From the NCBI RefSeq assembly GCF_001677475.2, contig NZ_CP015229.1: 64,000 nucleotides of DNA; one strand, 5' to 3'. Positions within the stretch are counted from its first letter, which is position 1. Each line of letters opens with the position of its first letter. This document shows, one piece after another, positions 1,050 through 41,394 of the stretch. A program made the translations under genes and the position numbers. The notes below the pieces were generated by a model. It saw nothing but the letters and a program-made list of their open reading frames with translations. It was not told the DNA's origin and made no database searches. The stretch comes from Escherichia coli (GTDB lineage: Bacteria; Pseudomonadota; Gammaproteobacteria; Enterobacterales; Enterobacteriaceae).

Positions 1050-1082
1050 ACGCAATAAAAAACCCGCCGAAGCGGGTTAAGT
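1050..1082 (-). terminator. Intrinsic terminator-like hairpin downstream of hok
   Basis: GC stem cccgcttcggcggg followed by a U-run when read on the minus strand. Confidence 0.5.
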
Positions 1083-1148
1083 GCGGGCGCGTTGAGGATG
1101 CCTGACACATCAGAGGTGGCGAGGGATTTCTCCCTCGCCAGGTCACTC

Positions 1149-1304
1149 TTACTCCTCAGATTCGTAAGCTGTGAAGACAGCGACCTCCGTCTGGCCGGTT
1201 CGGATTCGCACCTCGCAGAGGTCTTTCCTCGTTACCAGTGCCGTCACTATGACGGTTAAACAGATGACGATCAGGGCGATTAACATCGCCTTTTGCTGCT
1301 TCAT
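1149..1304 (-). CDS. hok: Hok/Gef-family type I toxin (51 aa membrane peptide)
   Basis: Translation MKQQKAMLIALIVICLTVIVTALVTRKDLCEVRIRTGQTEVAVFTAYESEE is near-identical in pattern to Hok/Gef proteins (single TM helix, conserved KDLCEV.IRTG..EVAVF.AYE). The 70-aa ORF track entry 1149..1361 is an upstream in-frame extension. Confidence 0.85.
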   Translation of the reverse strand: MKQQKAMLIALIVICLTVIVTALVTRKDLCEVRIRTGQTEVAVFTAYESEE

Positions 1305-1514
1305 AGCCTGCTTCTCCTTGCCTTTCGGCACGTAAGAGGCTAACCTACATGTGCAAAGCATGAAATTGGCCTCAGATTAATGTTAAGCGTCTTGCCGGAC
1401 GCGTAATGTTAACTGGGGCTTTTCTCTATCTGCCGTTGGTGTTCATGCCCGAGGCAGATAGCCTCAAGCACCCGCTGCAATTCTACTTAACTCTCCTTTT
1501 CCCGCAAACCGTTT

Positions 1515-1598
1515 TTATCCCCAGCGGCAAATCGAATACACCACCAGCGCCACCGCAAGTGCAATTCCTACCGTTGTGAATGCTTCAGGCCAGGTCAT
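1515..1598 (-). CDS. Small hydrophobic peptide (27 aa, MTWPEAFTTVGIALAVALVVYSICRWG)
   Basis: Its ATG overlaps the stop of the upstream 140-aa ORF in an ATGA arrangement; single predicted TM helix; below the ORF track size cut-off. Confidence 0.3.
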   Translation of the reverse strand: MTWPEAFTTVGIALAVALVVYSICRWG

Positions 1599-2017
1599 CG
1601 ATTCACCTCCTGCTCAATATTTTTAAGGTCATTTTCCGCATACAGTATTGCTGTCCTGGCTGCTCGTAACCGGGCTTTGGCATTTTTCTCTTCACGTTCA
1701 AGTTTTTCCACAGCTTCACGAAGAGCATCCCGCTTTGCATAGAGTGATTTAATCTCAGACACTATGTTTTCACCGTTTCTCGCACGGTCGAGAACAAGCT
1801 CGAACGGATCTAAAGCCAATCCGCATCGGTTACAGGTAATCGTACGATTCACTTCTGAAATTGTTGTACGGATATGCTGACAGCATTTTTGCTCGCCGCT
1901 TTTTCTGTCGGTTATCACAACGTTGAGAAGCCCTTCTTCCTCTGATTTTGGTTGCACAAGGGTGATAACATTGTCGATGTCATTTTTCATTAGCCCCCCA
2001 CTCTTGTGGTGATTCAT
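1595..2017 (-). CDS. Hypothetical prophage protein with a C-x2-C zinc-ribbon-like motif and a coiled-coil C-terminus
   Basis: ORF track entry; CCQH...CNRCG cysteine pairs; charged helical C-terminal half; a GGGGG Shine-Dalgarno precedes the internal MKNDIDN start. Confidence 0.5.
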   Translation of the reverse strand: MNHHKSGGLMKNDIDNVITLVQPKSEEEGLLNVVITDRKSGEQKCCQHIRTTISEVNRTITCNRCGLALDPFELVLDRARNGENIVSEIKSLYAKRDALREAVEKLEREEKNAKARLRAARTAILYAENDLKNIEQEVNR

Positions 2018-8746: not shown

Positions 8747-8799
8747 ATTCTGGTGACATTTGGCGGTATCAGTTTTACTCCGTGACTGCTCTGCCGCCC
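8747..8799 (+). ncRNA. dicF: DicF small RNA
   Basis: The sequence tTCTGGTGACaTTTGGCGGTATCAGTTTTACTCCGTGACTGCTCTGCCGCCCTTTTT matches the 53-nt DicF sequence from memory with about two substitutions, ends in a GC hairpin plus U-run, and lies about 185 bp upstream of dicB as in Qin. Confidence 0.65.
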
Positions 8800-11977: not shown

Positions 11978-12187
11978 ATGGCTATGAGCAGCTTATTTTT
12001 AACCGAAGATGAATTGCTAATATTAACGGGCTGCAAATATGCAAGCCACCAGCGAAAATGGTTAATGGAAAACGGGCTTCCGTTCTATACCAATCGTAGT
12101 GGCAAACCGATTGTCAGCCGGGATCTATTTACCTGCAATAAAACTTTACCACCACGCGAGGTAGAGCCGAATTTTGGTGCAATCTGA
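11978..12187 (+). CDS. Excisionase-like small DNA-binding protein
   Basis: 69-aa ORF immediately upstream of and overlapping the integrase start; the position is typical of xis. Confidence 0.5.
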   Translation: MAMSSLFLTEDELLILTGCKYASHQRKWLMENGLPFYTNRSGKPIVSRDLFTCNKTLPPREVEPNFGAI

Positions 12188-13212
12188 TGGGAAGACGAAG
12201 GAAAAATCCTGAACACGAAAAATTACCTCCAAATGTATACCCAAATAAATATAGTTATGTATGGAAACCAACATCCAGAGAATCTGTCACACTAACCGCC
12301 ATCAAGGATGGTTTAGCTGCTTTATGGAAAAAGTATGAGGAAACTGTAAATAATCGCGATCGCGCAATGACATTCGGTCGCTTGTGGGAAAAATTCCTCG
12401 CCAGCGCCTATTACAGTGACCTCAGTCCAAGAACACAAAAAGATTATCTGCAACATCAAAAAAAGTTGCTTGCCGTATTCGGTAAGGTGCCGGCAGATTC
12501 CATAAAACCAGAACACATCCGTCGATACATGGACAAGAGAGGGGAACAGAGTAAAACGCAAGCCAACCATGAAAAAAGCAGTATGTCCCGCGTTTACAAT
12601 TGGGGGTATGAGCGAGGGTACGTGAAGGGTAACCCATGTGCAGGTGTAAGTAAATTCAAGGCCAAAAACCGCGAACGATATGTAACCGACAAAGAATACC
12701 AGGCAGTATTAAGTGTTGCACCTCTTCCTGTTTTTATCGCAATGGAAATTGCCTATCTGTGTGCAGCGAGGGTTTCCGATGTGTTATCACTGAAATGGGA
12801 GCAGATTGGAAACGACGGGATCTTTATCCAGCAAGGGAAAACAGGGAAAAAACAGATAAAAGCATGGAGTCCACGATTACAGGCGGCGATCGAAAAAGCA
12901 AAACAGTTACCAACATCTGCCTATGTAATCAGCAATCAATATGGCAACCGATATATGTACAAAGGTTTTAACGAAATGTGGGTAGAAGCAAGAAATCACG
13001 CAGGCAAAATTTCAGGTATTTTAACCGACTTCACCTTTCATGATCTGAAGGCGAAAGGAATTTCAGACTATGAAGGAAGCAGCCGGGATAAGCAACTTTT
13101 CTCTGGTCACAAAACCGAAGGGCAAGTGCTAATCTATGACAGAAAGGTTAAAGTTTCACCAACACTTGATGTCCCGTTACCTGATAATATTCCAAGAAAA
13201 TATTCCAAGTAA
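12187..13212 (+). CDS. int: Tyrosine-type phage integrase
   Basis: 341 aa; C-terminal catalytic region with H-x-x-R (FTFHDLKAKG) and the tyrosine motif (VLIYDRK); ends about 50 bp from the 3-prime end of tRNA-Ser. Confidence 0.9.
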   Translation: MGRRRKNPEHEKLPPNVYPNKYSYVWKPTSRESVTLTAIKDGLAALWKKYEETVNNRDRAMTFGRLWEKFLASAYYSDLSPRTQKDYLQHQKKLLAVFGKVPADSIKPEHIRRYMDKRGEQSKTQANHEKSSMSRVYNWGYERGYVKGNPCAGVSKFKAKNRERYVTDKEYQAVLSVAPLPVFIAMEIAYLCAARVSDVLSLKWEQIGNDGIFIQQGKTGKKQIKAWSPRLQAAIEKAKQLPTSAYVISNQYGNRYMYKGFNEMWVEARNHAGKISGILTDFTFHDLKAKGISDYEGSSRDKQLFSGHKTEGQVLIYDRKVKVSPTLDVPLPDNIPRKYSK

Positions 13213-13264: not shown

Positions 13265-13354
13265 TGGCGGAGAGAGGGGGATTTGAACCCCCGGTGGAGT
13301 TGCCCCCACTCCGGTTTTCGAGACCGGTCCGTTCAGCCGCTCCGGCATCTCTCC
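13265..13354 (-). tRNA. serU: tRNA-Ser (anticodon CGA), serU-like
   Basis: Reverse complement reads GGAGAGATGCCGGAGCGGCTGAACGGACCGGTCTCGAAAACCGGAGTGGGGGCAACTCCACCGGGGGTTCAAATCCCCCTCTCTCCGCCA, a 90-nt class II tRNA with a CGA anticodon and long variable arm. Confidence 0.9.
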
Positions 13355-14345: not shown

Positions 14346-14421
14346 TCCTCTGTAGTTCAGTCGGTAGAACGGCGGACTGTTAATCCGTATGTCACTGGTT
14401 CGAGTCCAGTCAGAGGAGCCA
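14346..14421 (+). tRNA. asnT: tRNA-Asn (GUU)
   Basis: TCCTCTGTAGTTCAGTCGGTAGAACGGCGGACTGTTAATCCGTATGTCACTGGTTCGAGTCCAGTCAGAGGAGCCA; canonical E. coli tRNA-Asn with encoded CCA; preceded by the GC-rich discriminator taatatgcgccccgttcac. Confidence 0.95.
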
Positions 14422-14509
14422 AATTCTAAAAATTCGCTTTTTTAGCGCAATGTCACTGACCTTAGTTGAACATTGTTTTTTAACGGATAGCGGTTTTTTA
14501 ACATCTTAA

Positions 14510-14543
14510 GCGCCCTCGACCTTTATGGTTGAGGGCGTTTTGC
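14510..14543 (+). terminator. Intrinsic terminator downstream of asnT
   Basis: Hairpin gccctcgacc/ggttgagggc followed by TTTTG. Confidence 0.6.
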
Positions 14544-14734
14544 TATGAACGCCATCACCATTTTCCCCTCGATTATAAAACTTGAGTTATTCAGTAGTCT
14601 CCCCTCTTGCAACTCACACCCAAAACTGCCTAACGAAAAGTTATTAATTTTCAATCATATTGCTATCAGGATTTACATTTTTTCGCTGTGCTAGAAAGGG
14701 CGCATTTATGTTAGCTCGTTCAGGGAAGGTCAGC

Positions 14735-22738
<8,004 letters not shown>

Positions 22739-23319
22739 TTTTTCGTTATAATTTCTTACAGAGTGCTCCATTCGGGGCGCTCTGCTTTTACATTCGTTTA
22801 CTGTCAAACGCTCTATTAATATACCTGCATTTCCCATACCCCCCTGTTAGTTTGAAGATAGTCGAGCCTCCTTACTTTTTTTATAAAAGCTTTCACACAC
22901 GATATAACCACCTGTTCCACGCCAGCAGGAAACGAAGTACATGAGCTATTTTTGATAGCTATGATTGTTGCTATGTAGTCAAATTACGTTAATGTTTAGC
23001 TAATTACATCAAGAAGGAAGATATGTTAGGACGTACAAACAACATTAATTCATATTTCAATATTACAAATTACATCAGTACCACTCATAATAATGTATGC
23101 CTGTTAACGGAGATTTAAGTTCAGGTTGTCTTATTTATGATGGTGAAATACATTACAATGTTTTAGTTCCACCTGAATCGCGTTCGGTGTGACTATGATC
23201 ATTTTCGGTGAGTACTGCTTTGATCCAAAGGCTGGTTTTCTGTGATGATTAACCAGCCTCAGGGTATTGATGACACCACCGTTCATAACAGATCGGCATT
23301 ACTTTGCATACGTACTGCT

Positions 23320-24372
23320 TCATATTCTTGCCAAAACACTTTTTAATGCCTTTGCGAATTCATCCAGACTTATATTGTCAATTTTTTGCCCAACGACGAC
23401 TGACTCCGAGACATCGGCCATTGCGGGCCATCGCGTTTTGTAATCAGCATAAATTGCAACAACGGGGGTATTATAGGCACTTGCCATATGTAATATTGAG
23501 GTGTCAGGAGTTATTGCGATATAAGCATCTTTTATGATTGCTGCCGAACGTTTAATCGAGGGTGATAAGGATAAACGGAAGACATTATTATAACAATCCA
23601 CTAATACCCTGGCTTTATCTTCCCCTTTTGGTCCATGAACGATCACTATTGGCATATCTGTTTCATTTTTAATTTTTGCTATTAGATTTTCTGCTATCGA
23701 TAATGAAAATGTACGTTCCTGTGCACTACCTTCTAAATTGAGCGCAATGTAAGCTCCTAACGATCGCATTTCCTCGCGCACCTCATCGAGTACATCCTCG
23801 CTTAATGGCAATTCATATATTGGCCTGACTGCAGGAAAACCCGCTTCACGCATCATAAACGCCCATGTCATGGGTACGGGAGCCCTGAGATTCTGATCCA
23901 TCCGGGACGCGTTCTTACACAAAGGGGAATAGCACTTCATGGTTAAACCGACAACCTGAAAATTCGTTTTTGCTTTCAACTGACTGATAAATAACATCGT
24001 TTTCAGGTTCTTTTTACGCATCGCCTCTATACAAAGATCCGGCGTACCGTATTGCTGTGTTATGTTCTTCGCTAAATCTTTTATTTCTTTTAATGTTGCG
24101 TGATCCTGCATAGTCATTGTGACTAATGTTAATTTAGTCTGTTCAAGTTTGAGCGCATTAAAGACTTCTAAATTAATAGTCGAAGTAACAATTAAAAGAT
24201 GCTTTATTTTATGCATTTCAATCGCCCGAATAACTGGAAAGATGGCCATCGCATCGCCAATTTGATCGGGAATATGGATGACAACAAAGTCTGTTTTTCC
24301 AATATTGAAATTATTAGCTTTATAATCGTAGTAACTAAATGCAATACGTCTCAACAATGATGCTAAAAACAT
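23320..24372 (-). CDS. yeeL: YeeL-like glycosyltransferase family 9 (heptosyltransferase-like) protein, apparently intact
   Basis: 350-aa ORF between yeeJ and shiA, the K-12 position of the yeeL pseudogene; GT9-like composition. Confidence 0.6.
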   Translation of the reverse strand: MFLASLLRRIAFSYYDYKANNFNIGKTDFVVIHIPDQIGDAMAIFPVIRAIEMHKIKHLLIVTSTINLEVFNALKLEQTKLTLVTMTMQDHATLKEIKDLAKNITQQYGTPDLCIEAMRKKNLKTMLFISQLKAKTNFQVVGLTMKCYSPLCKNASRMDQNLRAPVPMTWAFMMREAGFPAVRPIYELPLSEDVLDEVREEMRSLGAYIALNLEGSAQERTFSLSIAENLIAKIKNETDMPIVIVHGPKGEDKARVLVDCYNNVFRLSLSPSIKRSAAIIKDAYIAITPDTSILHMASAYNTPVVAIYADYKTRWPAMADVSESVVVGQKIDNISLDEFAKALKSVLARI

Positions 24373-24686
24373 ACCTAACCTCGCCTCCCTACTGGTTATA
24401 ATGCAATGCAGTCTATCAGACTCATCAGGGTGCTATTTTGTACATATGCGGACTTTTATGTTTCATATCTCGAACCTGTGGGTGCTCTGCTTAATCCTTA
24501 AACAACACCAGCAACACCTGCGCTTTCATCTTCCATCGAATTTTTCATGTTGCCGTTAATCAGCTATAAAATCATTTGCAGATGCGCTCTGTCGAGGTAG
24601 TCTCATAAGGTTCGTTTATAGATCGACGGCAATGTGAGTTACCTTTTCCATACTAATTATAAAAAGACAGTACAAACAGGATCATT

Positions 24687-26003
24687 ATGGACTCCACGCT
24701 CATCTCCACTCGTCCCGATGAAGGGACGCTTTCGTTAAGTCGCGCCCGACGAGCTGCGTTAGGCAGTTTTGCCGGTGCCGTCGTCGACTGGTATGATTTT
24801 TTACTCTATGGCATTACCGCCGCACTGGTGTTTAATCGCGAGTTTTTCCCGCAAGTAAGCCCGGCTATGGGAACGCTCGCCGCATTTGCTACCTTTGGCG
24901 TCGGATTCCTTTTCCGTCCGCTCGGCGGTGTCATTTTCGGTCACTTTGGCGACCGACTGGGACGTAAGCGCATGTTAATGCTGACCGTCTGGATGATGGG
25001 CATCGCGACAGCCTTGATTGGTATTCTTCCTTCCTTCTCGACCATTGGGTGGTGGGCACCTATTTTGCTGGTGACACTGCGTGCCATTCAGGGATTTGCC
25101 GTCGGCGGCGAATGGGGAGGCGCAGCGTTGCTTTCCGTTGAAAGTGCGCCGGAAAATAAAAAAGCCTTTTACAGTAGCGGTGTACAAGTTGGCTACGGTG
25201 TAGGTTTACTGCTTTCAACCGGACTGGTTTCATTGATCAGTATGATGACGACCGACGAACAATTTTTAAGCTGGGGCTGGCGCATTCCTTTCCTGTTTAG
25301 CATCGTACTGGTACTGGGAGCATTGTGGGTGCGCAATGGCATGGAGGAGTCCGCGGAATTTGAACAACAGCAACATAATCAAGCGGCCGCGAAAAAACGC
25401 ATCCCGGTTATCGAAGCACTATTACGACATCCCGGTGCTTTCCTGAAGATTATTGCGCTACGACTGTGCGAGTTGCTGACGATGTACATCGTTACCGCCT
25501 TTGCACTTAATTATTCAACCCAGAATATGGGTTTACCGCGCGAACTTTTCCTTAATATAGGTTTGCTGGTCGGTGGATTAAGCTGCCTGACAATTCCCTG
25601 TTTTGCCTGGCTTGCCGATCGTTTTGGTCGCCGCAGGGTTTATATCACAGGCGCGTTGATCGGAACGTTGAGCGCATTTCCTTTCTTTATGGCGCTTGAA
25701 GCACAATCTATTTTCTGGATAGTTTTCTTCTCCATAATGCTGGCAAACATTGCGCATGACATGGTGGTGTGTGTACAACAACCGATGTTTACCGAAATGT
25801 TTGGTGCCAGTTATCGCTATAGTGGCGCTGGAGTCGGTTATCAGGTTGCCAGTGTGGTTGGTGGTGGATTTACACCTTTTATTGCCGCTGCACTCATCAC
25901 TTACTTTGCCGGGAACTGGCATAGCGTCGCCATTTATTTGCTGGCTGGATGCCTGATTTCCGCAATAACCGCTTCGTTGATGAAAGACAATCAACGCGCT
26001 TGA
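24687..26003 (+). CDS. shiA: Shikimate/dehydroshikimate MFS transporter
   Basis: 438-aa 12-TM MFS protein with the sugar-transporter signature GHFGDRLGRKRM; matches E. coli ShiA and its position upstream of amn. Confidence 0.85.
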   Translation: MDSTLISTRPDEGTLSLSRARRAALGSFAGAVVDWYDFLLYGITAALVFNREFFPQVSPAMGTLAAFATFGVGFLFRPLGGVIFGHFGDRLGRKRMLMLTVWMMGIATALIGILPSFSTIGWWAPILLVTLRAIQGFAVGGEWGGAALLSVESAPENKKAFYSSGVQVGYGVGLLLSTGLVSLISMMTTDEQFLSWGWRIPFLFSIVLVLGALWVRNGMEESAEFEQQQHNQAAAKKRIPVIEALLRHPGAFLKIIALRLCELLTMYIVTAFALNYSTQNMGLPRELFLNIGLLVGGLSCLTIPCFAWLADRFGRRRVYITGALIGTLSAFPFFMALEAQSIFWIVFFSIMLANIAHDMVVCVQQPMFTEMFGASYRYSGAGVGYQVASVVGGGFTPFIAAALITYFAGNWHSVAIYLLAGCLISAITASLMKDNQRA

Positions 26004-26104
26004 TAGTCTGGCGAAGATCATCCGATCTTCGCCTTACACTTTTGTTTCACATTCCTGTGACATACTATCGGATGTGCGGTAATTGTATGGAACAGGAGAC
26101 ACAC

Positions 26105-27559
26105 ATGAATAATAAGGGCTCCGGTCTGACCCCAGCTCAGGCACTGGATAAACTCGACGCGCTGTATGAGCAATCTGTAGTCGCTTTACGCAACGCCATT
26201 GGCAAATATATTACAAGTGGCGAATTACCTGATGAAAACGCCCGCAAACAAGGTCTTTTTGTCTATCCATCACTGACCGTAACCTGGGACGGTAGCACAA
26301 CCAATCCCCCCAAAACGCGCGCATTTGGTCGTTTTACTCACGCAGGCAGCTACACCACCACGATTACTCGCCCTACTCTCTTTCGTTCGTATCTCAATGA
26401 ACAACTTACGTTGCTGTATCAGGATTATGGTGCGCATATCTCTGTGCAACCCTCGCAGCATGAAATCCCTTATCCTTATGTCATCGATGGCTCTGAATTG
26501 ACACTTGATCGCTCAATGAGCGCTGGGTTAACTCGCTATTTCCCGACAACAGAACTGGCGCAAATTGGCGATGAAACTGCAGACGGCATTTATCATCCAA
26601 CTGAATTCTCCCCGCTATCGCATTTTGATGCGCGCCGCGTCGATTTTTCCCTCGCGCGGTTGCGCCATTATACCGGTACGCCGGTTGAACATTTTCAGCC
26701 GTTCGTCTTGTTTACCAACTACACACGTTATGTGGATGAATTCGTTCGTTGGGGATGCAACCAGATCCTCGATCCTGATAGTCCCTACATTGCCCTTTCT
26801 TGTGCTGGCGGGAACTGGATCACCGCCGAAACCGAAGCGCCAGAAGAAGCCATTTCCGACCTTGCATGGAAAAAACACCAGATGCCCGCATGGCATTTAA
26901 TTACCGCCGATGGTCAGGGTATTACTCTGGTGAATATTGGCGTGGGACCGTCAAATGCTAAAACCATCTGCGATCATCTGGCGGTGCTACGCCCGGATGT
27001 CTGGTTGATGATTGGTCACTGTGGTGGCTTACGTGAAAGCCAGGCCATTGGAGATTATGTACTTGCACACGCTTATTTACGCGATGACCACGTTCTTGAT
27101 GCGGTACTGCCGCCCGATATTCCTATTCCGAGCATTGCTGAAGTGCAACGTGCGCTTTATGACGCTACCAAGTTAGTCAGCGGCAGGCCAGGTGAGGAAG
27201 TTAAACAGCGGCTACGTACTGGCACTGTGGTAACCACAGATGACAGGAACTGGGAATTACGTTACTCAGCTTCTGCACTTCGTTTTAACTTAAGCCGGGC
27301 CGTAGCAATTGATATGGAAAGTGCAACCATTGCCGCGCAAGGATATCGTTTCCGCGTGCCATACGGGACACTACTGTGTGTTTCAGATAAACCGTTGCAT
27401 GGTGAGATTAAACTTCCCGGTCAGGCTAACCGTTTTTATGAAGGCGCTATTTCCGAACACCTGCAAATTGGCATTCGGGCGATCGATTTGCTGCGCGCAG
27501 AAGGCGACCGACTGCATTCGCGTAAATTACGAACCTTTAATGAGCCGCCGTTCCGATAA
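26105..27559 (+). CDS. amn: AMP nucleosidase
   Basis: 484-aa product from the internal ATG (MNNKGSGLTPAQALDKL...); the ORF track 25949..27559 is an upstream extension overlapping the shiA end; matches E. coli Amn. Confidence 0.9.
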   Translation: MNNKGSGLTPAQALDKLDALYEQSVVALRNAIGKYITSGELPDENARKQGLFVYPSLTVTWDGSTTNPPKTRAFGRFTHAGSYTTTITRPTLFRSYLNEQLTLLYQDYGAHISVQPSQHEIPYPYVIDGSELTLDRSMSAGLTRYFPTTELAQIGDETADGIYHPTEFSPLSHFDARRVDFSLARLRHYTGTPVEHFQPFVLFTNYTRYVDEFVRWGCNQILDPDSPYIALSCAGGNWITAETEAPEEAISDLAWKKHQMPAWHLITADGQGITLVNIGVGPSNAKTICDHLAVLRPDVWLMIGHCGGLRESQAIGDYVLAHAYLRDDHVLDAVLPPDIPIPSIAEVQRALYDATKLVSGRPGEEVKQRLRTGTVVTTDDRNWELRYSASALRFNLSRAVAIDMESATIAAQGYRFRVPYGTLLCVSDKPLHGEIKLPGQANRFYEGAISEHLQIGIRAIDLLRAEGDRLHSRKLRTFNEPPFR

Positions 27560-27619
27560 TAAGTTCTGAACCTTCTTATCAAAAATAGATGTGAAGGATT
27601 AAGTAAGACATCTGGCAAA

Positions 27620-27648
27620 TAGCCCGCAATAAACGCGGGCTGTTTGCT
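27620..27648 (+). terminator. Terminator-like hairpin after amn
   Basis: agcccgc-aataaac-gcgggct followed by a T-rich run. Confidence 0.5.
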
Positions 27649-27901
27649 TCCTTGGGCGGATACGAGTTTTATTATCGTCTTAATGATTTCCACATATTAA
27701 AAGCAAGTATGCTTTCAAAACACAATTATAAAAAATTCCGCCAACAATATAAGTTTTTATAAAATTAAATATAAGATTATGGCTTTAGAATATTTTTATT
27801 TCTAATAGACGAGATTTTTCCTGTTATGATATAATATGCCGAATTAACACATGTTAACGATTTACCAGTAATGTAAATAAATTTTCGAGGAGATCATTCC
27901 A

Positions 27902-28618
27902 GTGGGACGTAAATGGGCCAATATTGTTGCTAAAAAAACGGCTAAAGACGGTGCAACGTCTAAAATTTATGCAAAATTCGGTGTAGAAATCTATGCCGCT
28001 GCCAAACAAGGTGAACCCGATCCAGAATTAAACACATCTTTAAAATTCGTTATTGAACGAGCAAAGCAGGCACAAGTTCCAAAGCATGTTATTGATAAAG
28101 CAATTGATAAAGCCAAAGGCGGCGGAGATGAAACGTTCGTGCAGGGCCGTTATGAAGGCTTTGGTCCTAATGGCTCAATGATTATCGCTGAGACCTTGAC
28201 TTCCAATGTTAACCGTACGATTGCTAACGTTCGCACAATTTTCAATAAAAAAGGCGGCAATATCGGAGCGGCAGGTTCTGTCAGCTATATGTTTGACAAT
28301 ACGGGTGTGATTGTATTTAAAGGAACAGACCCTGACCATATTTTTGAAATTTTACTTGAAGCTGAAGTTGATGTTCGTGATGTAACTGAAGAAGAAGGTA
28401 ATATTGTTATTTATACTGAACCTACTGACCTTCATAAAGAAATCGCGGCTCTAAAAGCAGCTGGAATCACTGAGTTCTCAACAACAGAATTAGAAATGAT
28501 TGCTCAATCTGAAGTTGAGCTTTCCCCAGAAGATTTAGAAATCTTTGAAGGGCTTGTTGATGCCCTTGAAGATGACGACGATGTTCAAAAAGTTTATCAT
28601 AACGTCGCAAATCTCTAA
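27902..28618 (+). CDS. yeeN: YebC/PmpR-family probable transcriptional regulator
   Basis: 238 aa, GTG start, N-terminal [11 protein letters not shown] typical of the YebC family; position matches yeeN. Confidence 0.85.
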
Positions 28619-29071
28619 TTATATTTTAAAGAAATCTGTCTTTATGGCAGATTTCTTTAATCTCATATAATTCTTATAAAAAATATAATATTCAACTCGT
28701 CATATTGATTATAAAAATACCGGTCCCAGAGAAATAATATTTATTAAATTTCCAGGTTTTCTTTTTCTGATTACAGAAGACAAAGTGGCAATTACGTTTA
28801 GTTTCCCGATAAAAACGCGACAGCAACATCCCGCATAAGGCATTTTTCTCTTTATCTTTGTACGATACTTCATGGAACAGAGTTTTTGACCTTGTGAATC
28901 GTGATGTCTGTTGGGGAGGGGCAATTTGCTCACTGAAGCGTGAGACTCGATTAAGCGCACGAAACACAGAAATCAAAAAACCCGGTCACTTTTTTACAAG
29001 GTAACCGGGTAAAAATAATTTTTATTTTTTAATTGTTTTGAGACTCATAGAGATGTCTCAAAACTAAAATT

Positions 29072-29147
29072 TGGCTCCTCTGACTGGACTCGAACCAGTG
29101 ACATACGGATTAACAGTCCGCCGTTCTACCGACTGAACTACAGAGGA
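29072..29147 (-). tRNA. asnW: tRNA-Asn (GUU)
   Basis: Exact reverse complement of the 76-nt asnT sequence. Confidence 0.95.
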
Positions 29148-29247
29148 ATCGTGAGAACGAGGCGAATATTAGCGATGCCCATCCACAATGTCAAAGCCTG
29201 TTTTTTAAATTTGAAATCGTTTGCTGAAATAATCTGCATTTTGTCGT

Positions 29248-30888
29248 TTATTCCGACACAACTGGCTTTTTTTCACACTTTTGCGGCTCGGGTCGAGGGT
29301 ATTTCCATAGCCAACGTCCAGTAACCATTCGCCAGTAAAACAGCACGGCCCGCACAGCCCAGTCGGCAAACATTCCCATCCAGACACCAACCACACCCCA
29401 GCCAAGCATGATTCCCAGCACATAACCGACTACAACCCGGCAACCCCACATGCTCAACATAGAAACCCACATGGCGTAACGGGCATCACGAGCACCTTTA
29501 AATCCAGCGGGTAGCACCCATGAGGCGGACCAAATAGGCATAAATAAAGCATTTAGCCAAATCAGAATCACAACGACATGTTTAACCTGTGGATCCTGGG
29601 TGTAAAACGATGCCATAAGCCCGGCAAAGGGAGCCGTTAGCCAGGCGATGGCCGTTAACCCAAGAGTGGACAGCCAGAACACATGCCGCAACTGAATCTC
29701 TGCTTGCGCTATCTGCCCTACCCCCAACCTTCGGCCTGTAATGATCGTAGAAGCAGAGCCGAGCGCACTTCCGGGTAAGTTGATAAGAGCCGCAATTGAA
29801 AACGCGATAAAATTTCCGGCAATAACACTGGTCCCCATCCCGGCAACGAACATTTGGGTTAATAACCGACCACTGGTAAATAACACTGATTCGACACTCG
29901 CGGGAATACCAATCCCCATGACTTCCCAGATAATGCTAAAATTCAGCGGTTTAAAATAGCTCTTTAACGAAATCCTTAGCGCAGGATTAAAACCAATCGC
30001 CAGCACCCACAAAATTGCAACTGCGCCAATATAACGAGAAATGGTTAAACCCAACCCAGCCCCGACAAATCCCAGTCCCGGCCAGGAGAAAAGGCCGTAA
30101 ATCAATATGCCGCTAATAATAATATTAAGAATATTCAGGCTACCGTTAATCAGTAGCGGTATTTTCGTATTCCCTGCACCACGAAGTGCCCCGCTACCAA
30201 TTAGAGTGATGGCAGCTGCTGGATAACTGAGTACCGTCAGCTCCAGATAAGTCAACGCCAGTGCTTTAACTTCTGTCGTGGCATCACCCGCGACGAAATC
30301 AATAATTTGCTCGCCAAAATGATGAATAAGCGTTGCCAACAGTACGGCAAACAACGTCATGATCACCAATGACTGCCGCGTCGCCACCCTCGCTCGTCGT
30401 CGATCCCGCTTACCGAGACTAAATGCCACAACGACAGTAGTACCAAGATCGATAGCAGCAAAAAAAGCCATAATGACCATATTGAAGCTGTCCGCCAATC
30501 CCACGCCGGCCATCGCATCTTTTCCCAGCCAGCTGACCAGAAAAGTGCTCAGGACCCCCATCAGCAGGACACAGGCATTCTCCATGAAGATAGGAACAGC
30601 AAGCGGGGTTATCTCGCGCCAGAACAACACTTTGTAGCTCTTGCGTTTAGCGTGCCAGCGAGTGCCGTGAACAACCTGGCGTAAAGCAGAGGAGATATTC
30701 AAAGCCGACCTTAATTGCAGAAAGTGAAACCACATTTCAAATGATGAGGGAGAATCAGCAAAGCTGCAAAGATTTTCGCCAACAAATTGTCTGCAAATGC
30801 AACAAACTGTTGATAGAAACGGCAAACAGTTGGGGAATTTAAAAATCGGGTTTGACAAAAGATTTTTCGCCGTTAAGATGTGCCTCAA
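29248..30888 (-). CDS. yeeO: MATE-family multidrug/flavin efflux transporter
   Basis: 546-aa polytopic membrane protein, 12 TM helices, MATE-like; position between asnW and asnU as in E. coli; the true start may be an internal Met. Confidence 0.8.
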   Translation of the reverse strand: MRHILTAKNLLSNPIFKFPNCLPFLSTVCCICRQFVGENLCSFADSPSSFEMWFHFLQLRSALNISSALRQVVHGTRWHAKRKSYKVLFWREITPLAVPIFMENACVLLMGVLSTFLVSWLGKDAMAGVGLADSFNMVIMAFFAAIDLGTTVVVAFSLGKRDRRRARVATRQSLVIMTLFAVLLATLIHHFGEQIIDFVAGDATTEVKALALTYLELTVLSYPAAAITLIGSGALRGAGNTKIPLLINGSLNILNIIISGILIYGLFSWPGLGFVGAGLGLTISRYIGAVAILWVLAIGFNPALRISLKSYFKPLNFSIIWEVMGIGIPASVESVLFTSGRLLTQMFVAGMGTSVIAGNFIAFSIAALINLPGSALGSASTIITGRRLGVGQIAQAEIQLRHVFWLSTLGLTAIAWLTAPFAGLMASFYTQDPQVKHVVVILIWLNALFMPIWSASWVLPAGFKGARDARYAMWVSMLSMWGCRVVVGYVLGIMLGWGVVGVWMGMFADWAVRAVLFYWRMVTGRWLWKYPRPEPQKCEKKPVVSE

Positions 30889-30895
30889 CAGCGAT

Positions 30896-30971
30896 TCCTC
30901 TGTAGTTCAGTCGGTAGAACGGCGGACTGTTAATCCGTATGTCACTGGTTCGAGTCCAGTCAGAGGAGCCA
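30896..30971 (+). tRNA. asnU: tRNA-Asn (GUU)
   Basis: Identical 76-nt tRNA-Asn sequence. Confidence 0.95.
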
Positions 30972-30979
30972 AATTTCTA

Positions 30980-31009
30980 AAAAGCCCGCTTTTTTAGCGG
31001 GCTTTTTGC
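30980..31009 (+). terminator. Intrinsic terminator after asnU (probably bidirectional, abuts the cbl stop)
   Basis: aaagcccgc-ttttttag-cgggcttttt. Confidence 0.7.
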
Positions 31010-31429
31010 TATATCTGATAATCAATTTCCTCTTCACTGTTTTCCATCACCTGCCGCTTAATATCCTCAACTGACAGTCCTGCATTACAAAGTTCCAGAA
31101 AGCGCCAGACATAGTTACGCTGAAGTTGTCCTCGCTTGAGTCCCAACCAGACAGTATTAGCATCAAAAAGATGCCGCGTATCCAGGCGGATTAGATTCTC
31201 TTCCTCTTGTTCGCCGCTGGATTGTTCGGCAACTAATCCGATCCCAAGCCCAAGAGCAACATAGGTTTTAATGACATCAGAATCCTGCGCACTTAATACA
31301 ATATCTGCCAGCAAACCTTTGCGGGCAAATGCGTCATCAATACGTGAGCGCCCCGTAATCCCCTGTCGGTAAGTGATTAACGGCCACTTCGCTATTGATT
31401 CCAGCGTCAATGGTGAAATTTGCGTCAAG
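31009..31429 (-). pseudogene. cbl: cbl 3-prime fragment (C-terminal about 135 codons of the LysR-family sulfonate-utilisation regulator Cbl), separated from its 5-prime part by an IS insertion
   Basis: Translation TQISPLTLESIAKWPLITYRQGITGRSRIDDAFARKGLLADIVLSAQDSDVIKTYVALGLGIGLVAEQ... continues the reading frame of the 5-prime fragment at 33840..34375 exactly across the IS. Confidence 0.85.
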
Positions 31430-31522
31430 TATGAGACGACAATAACTCAGTCCGCCTGGCGCCGATTATTCTGGCCGGTTTTGTAACCTGAGTGTCATTT
31501 ACATGATCCAACAGGAAATGGC

Positions 31523-33022
31523 GTGACGCTCAATACTTCTCAGGTCAGTTACTATATGACTCAGCGTAAGAAAGGTATAACTCAGCATATCTCGGCCATG
31601 AAGGCTGGTATCTCAGTCCGTTCTGGTCGTCGGATCGAAAAAGGAGAGTGGGCAAAAAACAGTGTTCGGCACTGGCGCACACGCAAAGATCCTCTGGAAG
31701 CTGTGTGGGACAGCATGCTTGTTCCTCTGTTGAAAGAGAGGCCGGCTCTGACACCAACAACTCTACTGGAGATGCTACAGGATAAATATCCCGGCCAGTA
31801 CCCCAACAGCCTTCGAAGAACAATGCAACGGCGGGTTCGCGAATGGAAACTACAGTATGGTACAGAGCAGGAGGTCATGTTCCGCCAGCAACATCAGCCC
31901 GGCCTGCGAGGCCTGTCGGACTTTACTGAACTGAAAGGTGTAGTTGTCACCATCGCCGGTAAGTTGTTGGCGCATAAGTTGTATCACTTCCGTCTGGAAT
32001 GGAGCCACTGGAGCTGGATGCGGGTTGTTCTGGGTGGTGAGAGCTTCTCTGCTCTGGCTGAAGGCCTGCAGGAAGCCCTCGGACAACTGGGCGGAGTGCC
32101 GGTAGAACATAAAACGGACAGCCTGAGGGCAGCATGGAAACAACAGGGCGAAGATGGACGCCGCGAGCTGACTGAGCGTTATGCTACTCTCTGTCAGCAC
32201 TACGGAATGCAGGGCGTACACAATAATGCCGGTCGGGGCCACGAAAATGGCTCGGTTGAAAGTGCCCACGGACATCTGAAAAGGCGTATCTGTCAGGCGC
32301 TGATACTGCGGGGCAGTAACGACTTCAGCACCATAGAAGAATATCAGGCCTTCATCACTCAGCAGGTTATGCGGCACAACCGTAACAATCAGGATCTGGT
32401 CAAGGAAGAACGTCTTCATCTGAAACCGCTGCCGCTTCGTCGCAGTGCTGACTATGATGAGCTGACTGTGAGGGTTAGTCGCAGCAGTACCATCAATGTG
32501 AAGCACGTCGTCTACAGCGTACCTTCCCGGCTTGTAGGTCAACTGTTACGGGTCAGGTTATGGGACGATCGTCTGAGCTGTTACGTTGGCAGCAGCGAGG
32601 TCATGAGCTGCCCTCGCGTCAGACCAGAAAAAGGGAAGACGCGGGCCCGTCGTATCGACTTCCGACATGTGATCGACAGTCTGGCAAAAAAGCCCGGTGC
32701 GTTCTGCCATGCAACGCTGAGAAATGACATCCTGCCGGACGATGAATGGCGGAGGCTGTGGCGTCGCTTATGTAATCATCTGGAGCCCGATATGGCAGGA
32801 AGGCTGATGGTACATGCCCTGAAACTGGCTGCAGGATACGACGATATCTCAGTCGTGGCAAAAGGTATGGAGCAGATGCTGAATACCCCGGGAAACGTGG
32901 ATCTGCACCGGCTGATGCGCTTCCTGGGTATAAAAGAAAAGGCGTTGCCGGTAGTCAATGTGATACAGCATAACCTGAGCAGTTATGAGCAACTACTGCG
33001 TGGCAAGGGAGGTTCGCAGTGA
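31523..33022 (+). CDS. istA: IS21-family transposase IstA
   Basis: 499 aa; N-terminal HTH, central DDE-type integrase core; overlaps the downstream istB by 4 bp as in IS21-family elements. Confidence 0.85.
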   Translation: MTLNTSQVSYYMTQRKKGITQHISAMKAGISVRSGRRIEKGEWAKNSVRHWRTRKDPLEAVWDSMLVPLLKERPALTPTTLLEMLQDKYPGQYPNSLRRTMQRRVREWKLQYGTEQEVMFRQQHQPGLRGLSDFTELKGVVVTIAGKLLAHKLYHFRLEWSHWSWMRVVLGGESFSALAEGLQEALGQLGGVPVEHKTDSLRAAWKQQGEDGRRELTERYATLCQHYGMQGVHNNAGRGHENGSVESAHGHLKRRICQALILRGSNDFSTIEEYQAFITQQVMRHNRNNQDLVKEERLHLKPLPLRRSADYDELTVRVSRSSTINVKHVVYSVPSRLVGQLLRVRLWDDRLSCYVGSSEVMSCPRVRPEKGKTRARRIDFRHVIDSLAKKPGAFCHATLRNDILPDDEWRRLWRRLCNHLEPDMAGRLMVHALKLAAGYDDISVVAKGMEQMLNTPGNVDLHRLMRFLGIKEKALPVVNVIQHNLSSYEQLLRGKGGSQ

Positions 33023-33774
33023 GCAATATCCATCACCTTGAACATAGCCTGCGTAAACTACGCCTGACACGAGTTGGAGCTGAATGGCACGCTCTGGAAA
33101 AACGAGCGCTGGCAGAAGGCTGGACACCATCGCGCTATCTTCTGACGCTATGCAATGAAGAACTCCTGTGGCGCGAGAGTGAAAAACTGCGTCGTTATAA
33201 AAAGGAGGCCCGGTTGCCAGTTGCCAAAACGCTGAGCGAATACGACTTCAGTCAGGTGCCGGAACTGAATGGAGCTCAGTTCCGGCAACTCTGTGAAACG
33301 ACAGACTGGGTTGATGCAGGAGAAAACGTTCTGCTGTTCGGAGCCAGCGGGTTGGGGAAAAGCCATCTGGCGGCAGCGATCGTGGATGGCGTAGTAGGTC
33401 AGGGCTACCGGGCCCGGTTCTACAGCGCAGGAGAGCTGTTGCAGGAACTACGTAAAGCCAGAGCTCAGTTGAAACTGAATGAGCTGCTACTGAAACTGGA
33501 TCGCTACCGGGTGATAGTGGTGGATGATCTTGGCTATGTCAAACGCGATAGTGCCGAAACGGGTGTGCTGTTCGAGTTAATAGCGCATCGCTATGAACGT
33601 GGGAGCCTGGTGATAACCAGTAACCATCCGTTCAGCATGTGGGGCAGCATCTTCGTGGATGAGACTATGGCGGTGGCTGCGGCAGACAGGCTGATCCATC
33701 ACGGATATATGTTCGAACTGAAAGGGGAAAGCTACAGGAAAAAGACAGCGAAGGCAGTAACAAGCGCGACTTGA
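33019..33774 (+). CDS. istB: IS21-family helper ATPase IstB
   Basis: 251 aa; Walker A GASGLGKSH and Walker B VIVVDDLGY; DnaC-like AAA+ fold typical of IstB. Confidence 0.9.
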   Translation: MSNIHHLEHSLRKLRLTRVGAEWHALEKRALAEGWTPSRYLLTLCNEELLWRESEKLRRYKKEARLPVAKTLSEYDFSQVPELNGAQFRQLCETTDWVDAGENVLLFGASGLGKSHLAAAIVDGVVGQGYRARFYSAGELLQELRKARAQLKLNELLLKLDRYRVIVVDDLGYVKRDSAETGVLFELIAHRYERGSLVITSNHPFSMWGSIFVDETMAVAAADRLIHHGYMFELKGESYRKKTAKAVTSAT

Positions 33775-33839
33775 TGTCGCCCTGAAGGGTGCGGCCAGTA
33801 TAGTTGGCGCGAGTCGGCAAAACTAGTTGACGTCTAATA

Positions 33840-34375
33840 GTCAAGGGATGATCGTGTGGAACAAGCAAACTATGGTGCCAACGAAACCACGGGAAGGCGA
33901 CGAGCTGCGGGTCATTACTCAAACGCTCGCTGGCGATACCAATATCAGCTTCACCATTTTGCAACAACGTCGCAATTTCCTGTGGCGTCCCCTGGATTAG
34001 CTCGAGCCGAACCTCCGGGAAAAGTTCGCGAAAAGCTTTAATGACCTCTGGCAAGCTATAACGTGCCTGAGTATGCGTCGTTGCAATAGTGAGAACGCCA
34101 GACGTATCGTTGGTAAACAGGTCTGCAAGCCGACGAACATTACTGGCTTCATTCAGAATACGTTCTGCAATGACCAGTAATGCTTTGCCCGGTTCAGTCA
34201 TGCCCAGCAGTCTCTTACCTCGTCGAACAAATATTTCGATGCCAAGTTCATCCTCCAGTTCCCGAATATGACGGCTGACGCCTGACTGTGAGGTAAAAAG
34301 CATATTCGCAACCTCTGTCAGGTTGTAATCCTGACGTGCAGCTTCGCGGATTATCTTTAGTTGTTGGAAATTCAC
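33840..34375 (-). pseudogene. cbl: cbl 5-prime fragment (N-terminal about 178 codons, LysR HTH and start of the substrate-binding domain)
   Basis: MNFQQLKIIREAARQDYNLTEVANMLFTSQSGVSRHIRELEDELGIEIFVRRGKRLLGMTEPGKALL... up to ...LLVPHDHPL, then the frame runs into IS sequence; the ORF track entry 33665..34375 is the artefactual read-through. Confidence 0.85.
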
Positions 34376-34476
34376 GGTAAACTCCGGGCAGTTCAGATAT
34401 CCCGTTATTGTTAAAGTCTAATGCCCGGCATAACAAATAATAAAAACCCGCATCTTATTCCATCCCGATATAACGC

Positions 34477-35394
34477 TTAGCTCACCAATTGCCACTGCCT
34501 TTTTTCCATCACTGGAGAACTAATCACTGACATTAACAACTCTTTCACTGCTTGCGCCTGTGGTGATAAGTTCGCTCTGGCGGGTAAATTTAATGACAAA
34601 GAGAGACTCATGGAAGGTGTGGTAATGCGTGACATCCACCCGTTTACTGCGCCACATAACGAACGCGCGGCCGATTCGGGTAATACTGCAACGCCCATGC
34701 CGCTGGCAATCGCTGCGGTAAGCGTGGCAATAGACTCAATTTCACCAATGACTTTTGCCGTGAGCCGCCGTAGGGAAAAAGCCTCATCAACACGAAGTCT
34801 AATAGCACTGTAATCACTGGGGAGAAAGAGGTTCATTTGCGCAATAGCATTAACATCAACGCTTTGCCCCGGGCAATCTTGAGTTCCTACCAGGAAAAGA
34901 TCTTCTTTCAGCAAAGCCTGACTGGATACACCAGCCACAGGGGAATGCTCATAAATCACCGCCATATCGAGTTGATGATTTATCAGTTTTTCGTTAAGTA
35001 CTGCACCGCTATTTTCATGAAGATAGATAACGATCTCCGGGAATTCAGCGCGAACCGCCTGTAATAAGGGCATGGTGATGGATGACGCTGCGGTTCCTGG
35101 CGCAAAGCCAATCGAGACTTGCCCCGATAATGCCTGACCAACGTTATGCACCGCCAGTTGGGCCTGCTCACACTGACGTAAAATGGCCCGCGCATGGGTA
35201 TAGAGAATTTTTCCGGCGTCTGTTGGCGTAACGCCCCGTTTTGTGCGAATCAAAAGTTGTTGATTTAACTCACCTTCCAGTGTGGCAACCTGCTGACTGA
35301 GCGCTGGTTGTGCGATATGCAATACTTCAGCAGCCTGGGTCAGGCTACCAATATCTACAATTTTTACGAAGTATTTCAGGCGTCTGAAGTTCAT
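34477..35394 (-). CDS. nac: Nitrogen assimilation control protein Nac (LysR family)
   Basis: 305 aa from MNFRRLKYFVKIVDIGSLTQAAEVLHIAQPALSQQV...; position between cbl and asnV as in E. coli. Confidence 0.85.
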   Translation of the reverse strand: MNFRRLKYFVKIVDIGSLTQAAEVLHIAQPALSQQVATLEGELNQQLLIRTKRGVTPTDAGKILYTHARAILRQCEQAQLAVHNVGQALSGQVSIGFAPGTAASSITMPLLQAVRAEFPEIVIYLHENSGAVLNEKLINHQLDMAVIYEHSPVAGVSSQALLKEDLFLVGTQDCPGQSVDVNAIAQMNLFLPSDYSAIRLRVDEAFSLRRLTAKVIGEIESIATLTAAIASGMGVAVLPESAARSLCGAVNGWMSRITTPSMSLSLSLNLPARANLSPQAQAVKELLMSVISSPVMEKRQWQLVS

Positions 35395-35448
35395 GTTGCC
35401 TCCGGTGTTTAAGAATCGGCACAAGTGCCGCCATTACTTACAACCAGA

Positions 35449-35465
35449 GTGCAAGATGCTTGCCA
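35449..35465 (-). promoter_or_regulatory. Sigma-54 (-24/-12) promoter element for nac
   Basis: Minus-strand sequence CTGGCAAGCATCTTGCA fits TGGCAC-N5-TTGCA and lies about 55 to 70 bp upstream of the nac ATG; nac is known to be NtrC/sigma-54 dependent. Confidence 0.55.
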
Positions 35466-35720
35466 GTTTTATTTTGGCGTTGATGTACAAGCTAACCAGC
35501 TGTCAAATAAGAGATTATGATAGATTCGTCATTGGCTCCTTTAATCAGCTGTCGCGTTCCCCTGCCCTATAAAAGGAGGGTATGCACCACGATGGTTCAT
35601 TACCCAATAAGATTGAAAGCTCACCACTTTGTTGAAATTGACAGCAAACAAACAAAAAAATGCATTTCACCCTTTGACATCACCATGCACTGCCATTAAT
35701 ATGCGCCCCGTTCACACGAT

Positions 35721-35796
35721 TCCTCTGTAGTTCAGTCGGTAGAACGGCGGACTGTTAATCCGTATGTCACTGGTTCGAGTCCAGTCAGAGGAGCCA
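35721..35796 (+). tRNA. asnV: tRNA-Asn (GUU)
   Basis: Identical 76-nt tRNA-Asn sequence; same upstream discriminator as asnT. Confidence 0.95.
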
Positions 35797-39959: not shown

Positions 39960-40190
39960 AGACGCGCCTGTACTCTACCTGACGCTTCCGGGCAACCCAC
40001 TTCCCACCGAAGTTGTTGGTATTGACTGACTGGCTGGTCTTCTGGCTTAGCGTCATCCTCACCCGACCTTCCCAATCTCGCGATCAGTGGCATTTTCGGG
40101 TTTGTCAGCATTACAGCAGCGGGGGCTGCGAGGGATTTTCACCCTCTTCCCAGGCACAAATGTGCCACACCTGTCAGCGTATGTTATGAG
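39960..40190 (-). promoter_or_regulatory. Cobalamin (B12) riboswitch in the cob operon leader
   Basis: The minus strand reads ...GGGAAGAGGGTGAAAATCCCTCGCAGCCCCCGCTGCTGTAATG...GCCACTG...GGGAAGGTCGGGTGAGG..., matching the conserved core and the B12 box (GCCACTG) of the cobalamin riboswitch; located between pocR and the first cob-strand ORF as in Salmonella. Confidence 0.8.
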
Positions 40191-41192: not shown

Positions 41193-41394
41193 GATAAAAC
41201 CTCCCAGTTAATTTATTGTTATAGCAAAACAATTGTTTTACATTTAATCTTCACATCATCCTTGATGATTTACTGACGAGAAGCACAAAGGACAATAACA
41301 AAAGCCTCCGTGAAGCGGGAGACTTTTTAATAAGTTCGGAAAGCAGATCACAAACAGTAAAAAAATAAACGTTTATAACTGCCAGATTATTTCG

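Follow-up and report, generated by a model that had tools for sequence, protein, structure and literature searches.

The 64,000-nucleotide stretch of Escherichia coli DNA analysed here (hereafter the window; contig NZ_CP015229.1 of RefSeq assembly GCF_001677475.2) contains, near its first positions, a hok/mok/sok type I toxin-antitoxin locus that is directly preceded on the same strand by an open reading frame (ORF) of 27 codons. All features of the locus lie on the minus strand, except the Sok antisense RNA and its promoter, which are on the plus strand. The hok toxin gene (1149..1304, minus) stands behind an AGGAG Shine-Dalgarno (SD) sequence at 1318..1314 and encodes a 51-amino-acid protein, MKQQKAMLIALIVICLTVIVTALVTRKDLCEVRIRTGQTEVAVFTAYESEE. 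An earlier, sequence-only reading of this DNA had recognised the protein as a Hok/Gef toxin, and profile searches bear this out. The Pfam family PF01848 HOK_GEF is matched at 81.7 bits (cut-off 22; E = 2.7e-23) over profile positions 1-42 of 42, and the NCBIfam Hok models are matched with E = 7e-14, yet under their equivalog cut-offs. The layout of the 51 residues, an N-terminal transmembrane helix (LIALIVICLTVIVTALV) followed by a polar, cysteine-containing C-terminal part (RKDLCEVRIRTGQTEVA), fits the Hok/Gef family. In addition, E. coli GB089 carries the identical DNA, for which the RefSeq annotation is hokD.

The sequence-only reading had also anticipated a mok frame, a sok-like RNA and fold-back elements without placing them; all of these could be located and are intact. 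The mok gene (1149..1361, minus; 70 amino acids) is an N-terminal extension in frame with hok, and is the equivalent of the annotated mokW of the Shiga-toxin (Stx) phage 933W. The full-length hok mRNA is predicted to span 417 nucleotides (1057..1473, minus), as judged from an Rfam match and from its fold. All of Rfam RF01794 (model positions 1-157 of 157) aligns to 1473..1299 of the minus strand with 112.8 bits (gathering score 59), and the start of this match places the predicted mRNA 5′ end at G1473. Since the end of this model, which is named 'sok', aligns with the SD and AUG of hok, the match marks the sense-strand hok leader; the true antisense RNA lies on the opposite strand. The 417-nucleotide mRNA folds far better than shuffled sequence (z = -6.97). 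In its minimum-free-energy fold, computed in silico, the tac element at the 5′ end (GGGUGCUUGAGG; 1462..1473, minus) pairs with the fold-back inhibition (fbi) element of the hok 3′ untranslated region (UTR) (CCUCAACGCGCCC; 1085..1097, minus) through 12 base pairs and one bulge. The mRNA ends at an intrinsic terminator (1057..1078, minus), made of a stem-loop at 1078..1061 and a U-run. The hok 3′ UTR and terminator together (1057..1138, minus) also give a sub-threshold match to isrK, a Salmonella prophage small RNA family (31.3 bits versus a gathering score of 50; E = 0.0004).

The putative hok promoter (1480..1507, minus) was read from the sequence as TTGCGG (1507..1502), a 16-nucleotide spacer and TAGAAT (1485..1480), with 6 nucleotides between this -10 element and the predicted 5′ end at G1473. 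This region is invariant among the loci of phages 933W and 606R7. On the plus strand, the sok promoter (1318..1346) consists of a -35 TTGCCT (1318..1323), a 17-nucleotide spacer and a -10 TAACCT (1341..1346), and is identical to that of 933W and of the Sakai prophage Sp5. The predicted Sok antisense RNA (1353..1423, plus; 71 nucleotides), mapped by alignment from the annotated sokW of 933W, covers the SD and start codon of mok. It folds into a 15-nucleotide single-stranded 5′ tail, a long hairpin and a U-tail (-28.6 kcal/mol, z = -4.71). The hok and sok promoters were thus placed by homology and, for sok, by published mutagenesis. In Takada et al. 2021 (PMC8621323), the mutagenic primer YO-421 replaces the sense-strand sequence TAGGTTA, the complement of TAACCTA, its partner primer YO-422 stops just short of this element, and the mutant is without Sok protection; the -10 TAACCT of the window is identical to the element mutated there. 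Since every part of the hok/mok/sok system is present, the locus is an intact close relative of hokW-sokW. The decayed locus that the sequence-only reading had contemplated, should neither an antisense promoter nor complementarity be found, is contradicted by the presence of the sok promoter, of Sok and of its hairpin. Overall, the hok/mok/sok locus is complete, of an already known kind and ordinary.

The second gene is the 27-codon ORF (1515..1598, minus), which encodes a predicted single-pass membrane peptide, MTWPEAFTTVGIALAVALVVYSICRWG. Start and stop overlap in an ATGA arrangement, the ATG of the peptide gene being at 1598..1596 and the TGA of the upstream ORF 1595..2017 at 1597..1595, so that the overlap with the preceding gene described beforehand is indeed read at 1595..1598. 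A GGAGGT SD sequence (1605..1610, minus) stands 6 nucleotides before the ATG, within the 3′ end of the upstream gene, and in most of the contexts read a GGAGG-like motif is found ahead of the ATG, also where the upstream gene is a different one. The gene is annotated in none of the RefSeq and phage records inspected; a few GenBank submitters have entered the peptide as 'hypothetical protein' (for instance AOM45384.1 and ETE11013.1). The missing annotation likely reflects gene-finder length cut-offs, the ORF measuring 84 nucleotides with its stop codon. Taken by itself, an ORF of 27 codons is within chance expectation, as the first 3.5 kb of the window are overlapped by 58 ORFs of at least 20 amino acids. 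It is the comparative evidence that takes the peptide ORF beyond chance.

A tblastn search found the peptide in 95 phage records, and pattern scans of IMG/VR confirmed it in 495 and 328 stretches. Hence the ORF is conserved in related prophages, where its absence had been named beforehand as grounds for doubting it. For coding tests, 177 fetched loci were reduced to 91 unique contexts with 59 distinct 84-nucleotide sequences. Exactly 27 codons followed by TAA or TGA are found in 53 of the 59, and the identical major peptide variant, MTWPEAFTTVGIAMAVALVVYSICRWG, is encoded by 28 distinct DNA sequences. The pooled ratio of non-synonymous to synonymous polymorphism (pN/pS) is 0.23 in frame, versus 1.30 and 2.43 in the other forward frames. 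Among close relatives, 26 distinct alleles are synonymous and 8 non-synonymous, against an expected synonymous fraction of 0.25 (p = 3e-10), and the other frames of the same close relatives show no synonymous excess. The base after the ATG is A in all 59 distinct sequences, which keeps the ATGA overlap, and serine at codon 2 is encoded only by AGY; such a constraint is what a need to maintain the overlapping TGA stop would impose. In divergent members (52-67% identity to the main type), M1, W3, P4, A6, G11 and W26 are kept, and A15, R25 and G27 nearly always, the amino-acid pattern being preserved despite heavy change in the DNA. On these comparative grounds, the 27-codon ORF is judged to be a genuine coding gene.

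The same comparisons bear on how the peptide gene relates to hok. In a blastn search of 5426 complete E. coli genomes, 1633 proved to carry its DNA, at 3107 places in total; a single genome holds up to 7 copies, and 163 of the 3107 places are on plasmids. A scan of one genome per species returned 2 loci, one of them on a 369-nucleotide Acinetobacter contig that is probably contamination. The family looks confined to phages of Escherichia, Shigella and Salmonella, as seen with a strict 9-residue scan pattern. In the flanks read, homology ends at the borders of a unit made of the SD and the ORF. Upstream, the genes belong to at least four unrelated classes: PHROG 1621, ending ...NDLKNIEQEVNR; DUF551, ending ...MPLPEPPQEVNQ; a 114-amino-acid protein, ending ...RNGLISVEDILR; and EaA. 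Downstream, at least eight unrelated classes of sequence are seen. In some contexts the hok promoter comes next, in others ea22, a DUF4222 gene that precedes xis and int, or a terminator with a type II toxin-antitoxin pair in convergent orientation behind it.

Among the 87 contexts with at least 500 nucleotides of downstream sequence, hok follows the peptide gene within 900 nucleotides on the same strand in 41, and the same peptide amino-acid sequence is found both with and without hok. In the virulent Vequintavirinae TH18 and Av-05, a homologue lies between EaA-like and ea22-like genes, and the P1-like Salmonella phage SJ46 encodes a 24-amino-acid form with no adjacent hok; the homologues of these phages are ATGA-coupled to EaA-like or other genes. 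The presence of the gene in virulent myoviruses and in a P1-like phage-plasmid shows that it is not tied to lambdoid lysogeny. Conversely, many hok loci have no peptide gene. At the hok locus of CFT073 (hokD), the peptide gene is reduced to ATG AAT ATT TAG. The slot before the hok promoter of CFT073 holds a different ORF, with a strong SD (GGAGGAATAATG), for a 59-amino-acid protein that has two hydrophobic stretches (MKNALQFLFVAFWLF...CIEYWR). As far as its sequence surroundings tell, the peptide gene is a free-standing mobile phage mini-gene, composed of the SD and the ORF, and not part of the hok circuit.

We therefore favour, as probable though short of certain, a reading of the region as two independent modules placed head to tail, a complete hok/mok/sok locus and a free-standing 27-codon phage mini-gene. 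In the first module, a weak promoter would give rise to the 417-nucleotide hok mRNA, which would be held translationally inert by the locking of the 5′ tac to the 3′ fbi. Hok would be translated only via the overlapping mok frame. The 71-nucleotide Sok, made convergently from within the leader, would pair over the ribosome-binding site and start codon of mok and so block expression; upon loss of Sok, Hok would be expected to insert in the inner membrane. In the second module, the 27-codon gene would be the last cistron of the upstream early operon. With its own GGAGGT SD and the ATGA overlap, the peptide should be made along with the preceding protein whenever the early operon is translated. 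The gene would move among phages as a unit of SD and ORF.

Several observations weigh against this two-module reading or against the evidence on which it draws. First, a consensus promoter scan left both the hok and the sok promoter under threshold; this is explained by the fact that each has one hexamer with only 3 of 6 consensus matches, the -35 in the case of hok. Second, the sequences used in the coding tests are related and recombine, so that the p-values overstate their independence, and the antisense frame that shares wobble positions with the peptide frame also gives a low pN/pS (0.26). We rejected this antisense signal as a shared-wobble artefact; in the window, that frame has no start codon from which an ORF would reach 20 amino acids. 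Third, strings of the peptide were found neither in a full-text literature search nor in the supplements of a small-gene ribosome profiling (Ribo-seq) study of O157 Sakai. Fourth, a TAG interrupts codon 3 in two phages and the stop codon is lost at a few loci, which indicates that the gene is dispensable. Fifth, 32 of the 41 contexts with hok show an almost constant spacing of 189-216 nucleotides to the Hok match; with hok present in 41 of the 87 contexts, a functional link between peptide and hok may exist in the hok-containing cassette. Finally, the function proposed below for the peptide is read from its size, hydrophobicity, conserved residues and position only.

The two interrupted copies, in phiSTEC1589-Stx1c and in the Shigella phage POCJ13, carry the same TGG-to-TAG change at codon 3 and share the same upstream junction, with the remainder of the ORF still discernible. 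Either these copies are pseudogenes, or a single inherited lesion has been passed on by recombination.

Searches of protein families gave little for the peptide. It has no match in Pfam-A, its best match in PHROGs v4 has E = 0.1, and in NCBIfam 20 the KdpF model reaches 13.5 bits (cut-off 26.85). A HMMER search of 1.84 billion representative proteins with a 31-amino-acid form of the peptide returned 24 matches; the 18 inspected are all members of the same narrow family, length variants or accidental fusions to the upstream gene, and the search revealed no distant relatives. In sporadic database proteins (P0056, of 143 amino acids, P0059, P0036, P0037 and P0043), the peptide forms an in-frame C-terminal extension of an upstream protein, and one variant has an expansion of Ala-Met repeats (AMAMAMAMAV) within the helix. 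A candidate fusion between DUF551 and the peptide, suggested by a database cluster that includes 121-amino-acid DUF551 proteins, was rejected: those proteins do not contain the peptide, and the link arises from partial calls at contig edges that follow the reading frame of the peptide.

The 27 residues have a grand average of hydropathy (GRAVY) of 1.16, with a hydrophobic core at residues 7-24. The acidic N-terminus (MTWPEAF) and the basic C-terminus (CRWG) predict, according to the positive-inside rule, a single-pass inner-membrane peptide with its N-terminus out and its C-terminus in. G11 and A15, both near-invariant, make up a small-xxx-small motif for helix packing (G11xxxA15), and tryptophan anchors are found at both ends. 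Overall, the gene probably yields, early in the development of the phage, a peptide that spans the inner membrane once. Our best guess, inferred from these features, is that this small peptide modulates a membrane protein of the host or the phage in early lytic development.

The alternatives to two independent modules start from the architecture of the junction. Between the peptide stop (1515) and the hok -35 (1507) there are only 7 nucleotides, and neither a terminator scan nor the sequence itself reveals a terminator there. Early-operon transcription must then enter the hok/sok unit and meet the convergent sok promoter. In the work on hokW-sokW cited above, HokW is made and sokW RNA is lost only upon RecA-dependent prophage induction, by a mechanism left unexplained (PMC8621323), and read-through could bear on this loss. 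In the most far-reaching form of this idea, the peptide would represent an unnamed family of phage early small membrane proteins, carried by ~30% of complete E. coli genomes and by Stx phages such as 933W and Sp5, that takes part in an induction switch within hok cassettes. Antiterminated read-through would collide with the sok promoter and free Hok, while the peptide would add to, or tune, the effect on the membrane. Such a switch would explain both the RecA-dependent loss of sokW RNA and the production of HokW; we nevertheless consider it unlikely.

A related proposal, which we regard as quite unlikely, is that the peptide and hok form one functional cassette, with the peptide gene acting as a regulatory or leader cistron, with the peptide as a membrane partner of Hok, or with read-through switching Hok on after induction. 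The unavoidable read-through and the unexplained behaviour of HokW and sokW upon induction are in its favour, and so is the recurrence of hok downstream, mostly at the same junction (TAAAAACGGTTTGCGGG) and with ~210 nucleotides from the peptide stop to the Hok start. However, a junction that is nearly always the same sequence fits a single ancestral joining followed by spread, rather than repeated selection for linkage. Identical peptides occur with and without hok, virulent and P1-like phages carry the peptide gene with no hok beside it, and hok loci devoid of the peptide are common. Moreover, hokW-sokW acted as a toxin-antitoxin system with or without the peptide ORF on the construct (pBAD24-hokW versus pBAD18-hokW-sokW; PMC8621323). 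The suggestion of the sequence-only reading that the tandem peptide could be a regulatory ORF of hok is therefore not upheld: its neighbours are unrelated on both sides, hok follows in less than half of the contexts, and hok loci often do without it.

We find it very unlikely that the peptide is itself toxic, whether as a type I-like toxin standing alone, as an effector of abortive infection or as an accessory to lysis; the locus would then hold two toxins in tandem. The peptide resembles TisB, DinQ and ShoB-type toxins in size, hydrophobicity and single transmembrane helix, and its gene is found among phage accessory genes beside toxin-antitoxin systems, either hok or type II. On the other hand, no plus-strand promoter is predicted for an antisense RNA, the flanks read share no conserved antitoxin-RNA sequence, and the gene has neither a promoter of its own nor a long, restraining 5′ UTR. 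It has instead a strong SD and the ATGA overlap with an ordinary early gene, so that its expression appears unrestrained, unlike that of known type I toxins. Up to seven copies occur per genome. In addition, transcription of the ORF from PBAD in pBAD18-hokW-sokW, with sok intact, caused no growth defect, although this test was weak in that the native SD was absent from the construct (PMC8621323). The second toxin-like element that had been envisaged in the earlier reading thus finds no counterpart in the organisation of the gene.

Finally, conservation of the 84 nucleotides as untranslated DNA or RNA, for example as a recombination linker of mosaic modules or as an upstream promoter element, would account for a segment lying exactly at mosaic junctions, unannotated in RefSeq and in almost all phage records and without a proteomic or Ribo-seq match in the literature and supplement searches, but is highly improbable, given that the synonymous excess is frame-specific, that the ATG, the SD-like motif, the length and the position of the stop (codon 28, TAA or TGA) are all maintained, that divergent homologues keep the amino-acid pattern while their DNA changes heavily, and that the missing annotation is likely a length cut-off artefact which a few submitters escaped.

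Both modules belong to a lambdoid prophage that has a tRNA-Ser gene as its integration site, and they occupy the nin region of this prophage, the part between P and Q. Positions 1040-2020 of the window are 100% identical to DNA of the E. coli GB089 chromosome, where the equivalent region belongs to a lambdoid prophage and is flanked by replication genes (a DnaT-like protein and P) on one side and by DUF968, RusA and antiterminator Q genes on the other. The genes of the nin region are all in the same orientation as hok and the 27-codon ORF, on the minus strand of the window. An integrase ORF (12187..13212) marks the prophage end beside the tRNA-Ser (CGA) gene (13265..13354, minus), and the small RNA DicF is encoded inside the prophage (8748..8799, plus). 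GB089 harbours a second prophage (chromosome positions 1483320-1486409) with the same run of genes: methyltransferase, DUF7167, a 58-amino-acid gene, a PHROG 1621 gene, peptide and hok. There, 100% identity holds over the peptide region, but the run gives way to a Doc-family type II toxin. Elsewhere in the window are four tRNA-Asn genes (14346..35796), a cobalamin riboswitch (40015..40189, minus) and STnc230 (41253..41336, plus).

The upstream early-operon gene (1595..2017, minus), whose TGA stop overlaps the peptide ATG, has PHROG 1621 as its only family match. Two starts can be considered. The ATG at 2017, ATGA-coupled to the preceding 58-amino-acid gene, gives 140 amino acids, whereas the ATG at 1990, behind a G-rich SD, gives 131 and is the choice of RefSeq. 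The length of 140 amino acids proposed in the earlier reading thus holds in part, since databases contain both forms but the RefSeq start yields the shorter one. The protein has a C-terminal coiled-coil-like tail. Its C-x-H...C-x-x-C ligands are kept in the 58% identical protein L0139 of 933W, and from this pattern a zinc ribbon is plausible.

With respect to hok/sok, the window brings nothing new, since this prophage toxin-antitoxin system has been well studied and the further copy found here is annotated in RefSeq. What is of use is the mini-gene beside it, essentially unannotated and with strong comparative evidence of translation, which occurs in Shiga-toxin phages, P1-like phage-plasmids and virulent Vequintavirinae. 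Should it be translated as predicted, the phage small membrane proteins would gain a member that is easy to test. The mini-gene also matters for work on hokW-sokW, as published constructs and deletions start or stop right at the peptide ORF and read-through into hok is built into the architecture. The insert of pBAD18-hokW-sokW (primer YO-432) begins exactly at the peptide ATG. The deletion primer YO-351 starts at the 5′ end of the hok mRNA, so that the hokW-sokW deletion appears to spare the peptide gene. The sections consulted of Takada et al. (PMC8621323) make no mention of the 27-codon ORF.

The closest known system is hokW-mokW-sokW of the Stx2 phage 933W and Sakai prophage Sp5 (AF125520), which has the same layout as the locus in the window. 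The locus in the window shows 92-95% DNA identity to 933W and other phage loci with annotated mokW, hokW and sokW; in 933W, the ~92% identical stretch begins at the 3′ end of the upstream gene and takes in the peptide ORF and the entire hok locus. The two Hok proteins differ at 3 of 51 residues, and the sok promoter, hairpin and leader are essentially identical. In the fbi element, one U-G pair is replaced by U-A in 933W. The same unannotated 27-codon ORF, MTWPEAFANVGTVMAVVLVVYSICRWR, is present in 933W, ATGA-coupled to L0139. The locations differ: the window copy lies in the nin region, whereas the 933W locus is near the prophage end, beside tail-region genes. As reported by Takada et al. 2021, hokW-sokW is a working type I toxin-antitoxin system in which Hok is toxic and Sok neutralises it, the antitoxic activity of Sok depends partly on RNase III and Hfq, and HokW aids phage release (PMC8621323).

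The sequences of the two loci also differ at many positions in the block 1353..1373, which covers the 5′ tail of Sok and the start of mok. Owing to this divergence, the Sok RNAs of the window and of 933W are probably not interchangeable. These ~20 nucleotides, with the Sok 5′ tail, the mok start and its first codons, vary strongly among the window, 933W and phage 606R7, while the hok leader on both sides (300 nucleotides) is almost invariant and mok stays open in all three. The block looks like a specificity determinant that would prevent cross-talk among the several hok/sok copies of one genome.

Kinship with the hok/sok system of plasmid R1 and the chromosomal hokA-E loci described by Gerdes and co-workers is wider. 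A Hok/Gef toxin, an overlapping mok, a convergent Sok with a single-stranded 5′ tail and a hairpin, the 5′-3′ pairing of tac and fbi and the match to the Rfam hok leader are common to all. The protein kinship with R1 Hok is distant, HokW sharing 44% identity with it (PMC8621323). In addition, the locus in the window is borne by a prophage, and its studied homologue serves lysis and phage release rather than plasmid maintenance.

The 27-residue peptide can be set beside two groups of small membrane proteins. With TisB, DinQ, ShoB and Ibs it has in common its size and a single hydrophobic helix. It differs from them in lacking sequence similarity, an antisense RNA, a dedicated promoter and a structured leader, and in its translational coupling to a normal gene; the peptide does not belong to this group of small type I toxins. 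The second group comprises KdpF, AcrZ, MgtS and MgrB, together with phage exclusion-related early membrane proteins. Here the common features are a length below 50 amino acids, one transmembrane helix, interfacial tryptophan residues, a small-xxx-small motif and co-translation with other genes, although no homology links them to the peptide. By this functional analogy, a small inner-membrane regulatory peptide is favoured over a toxin.

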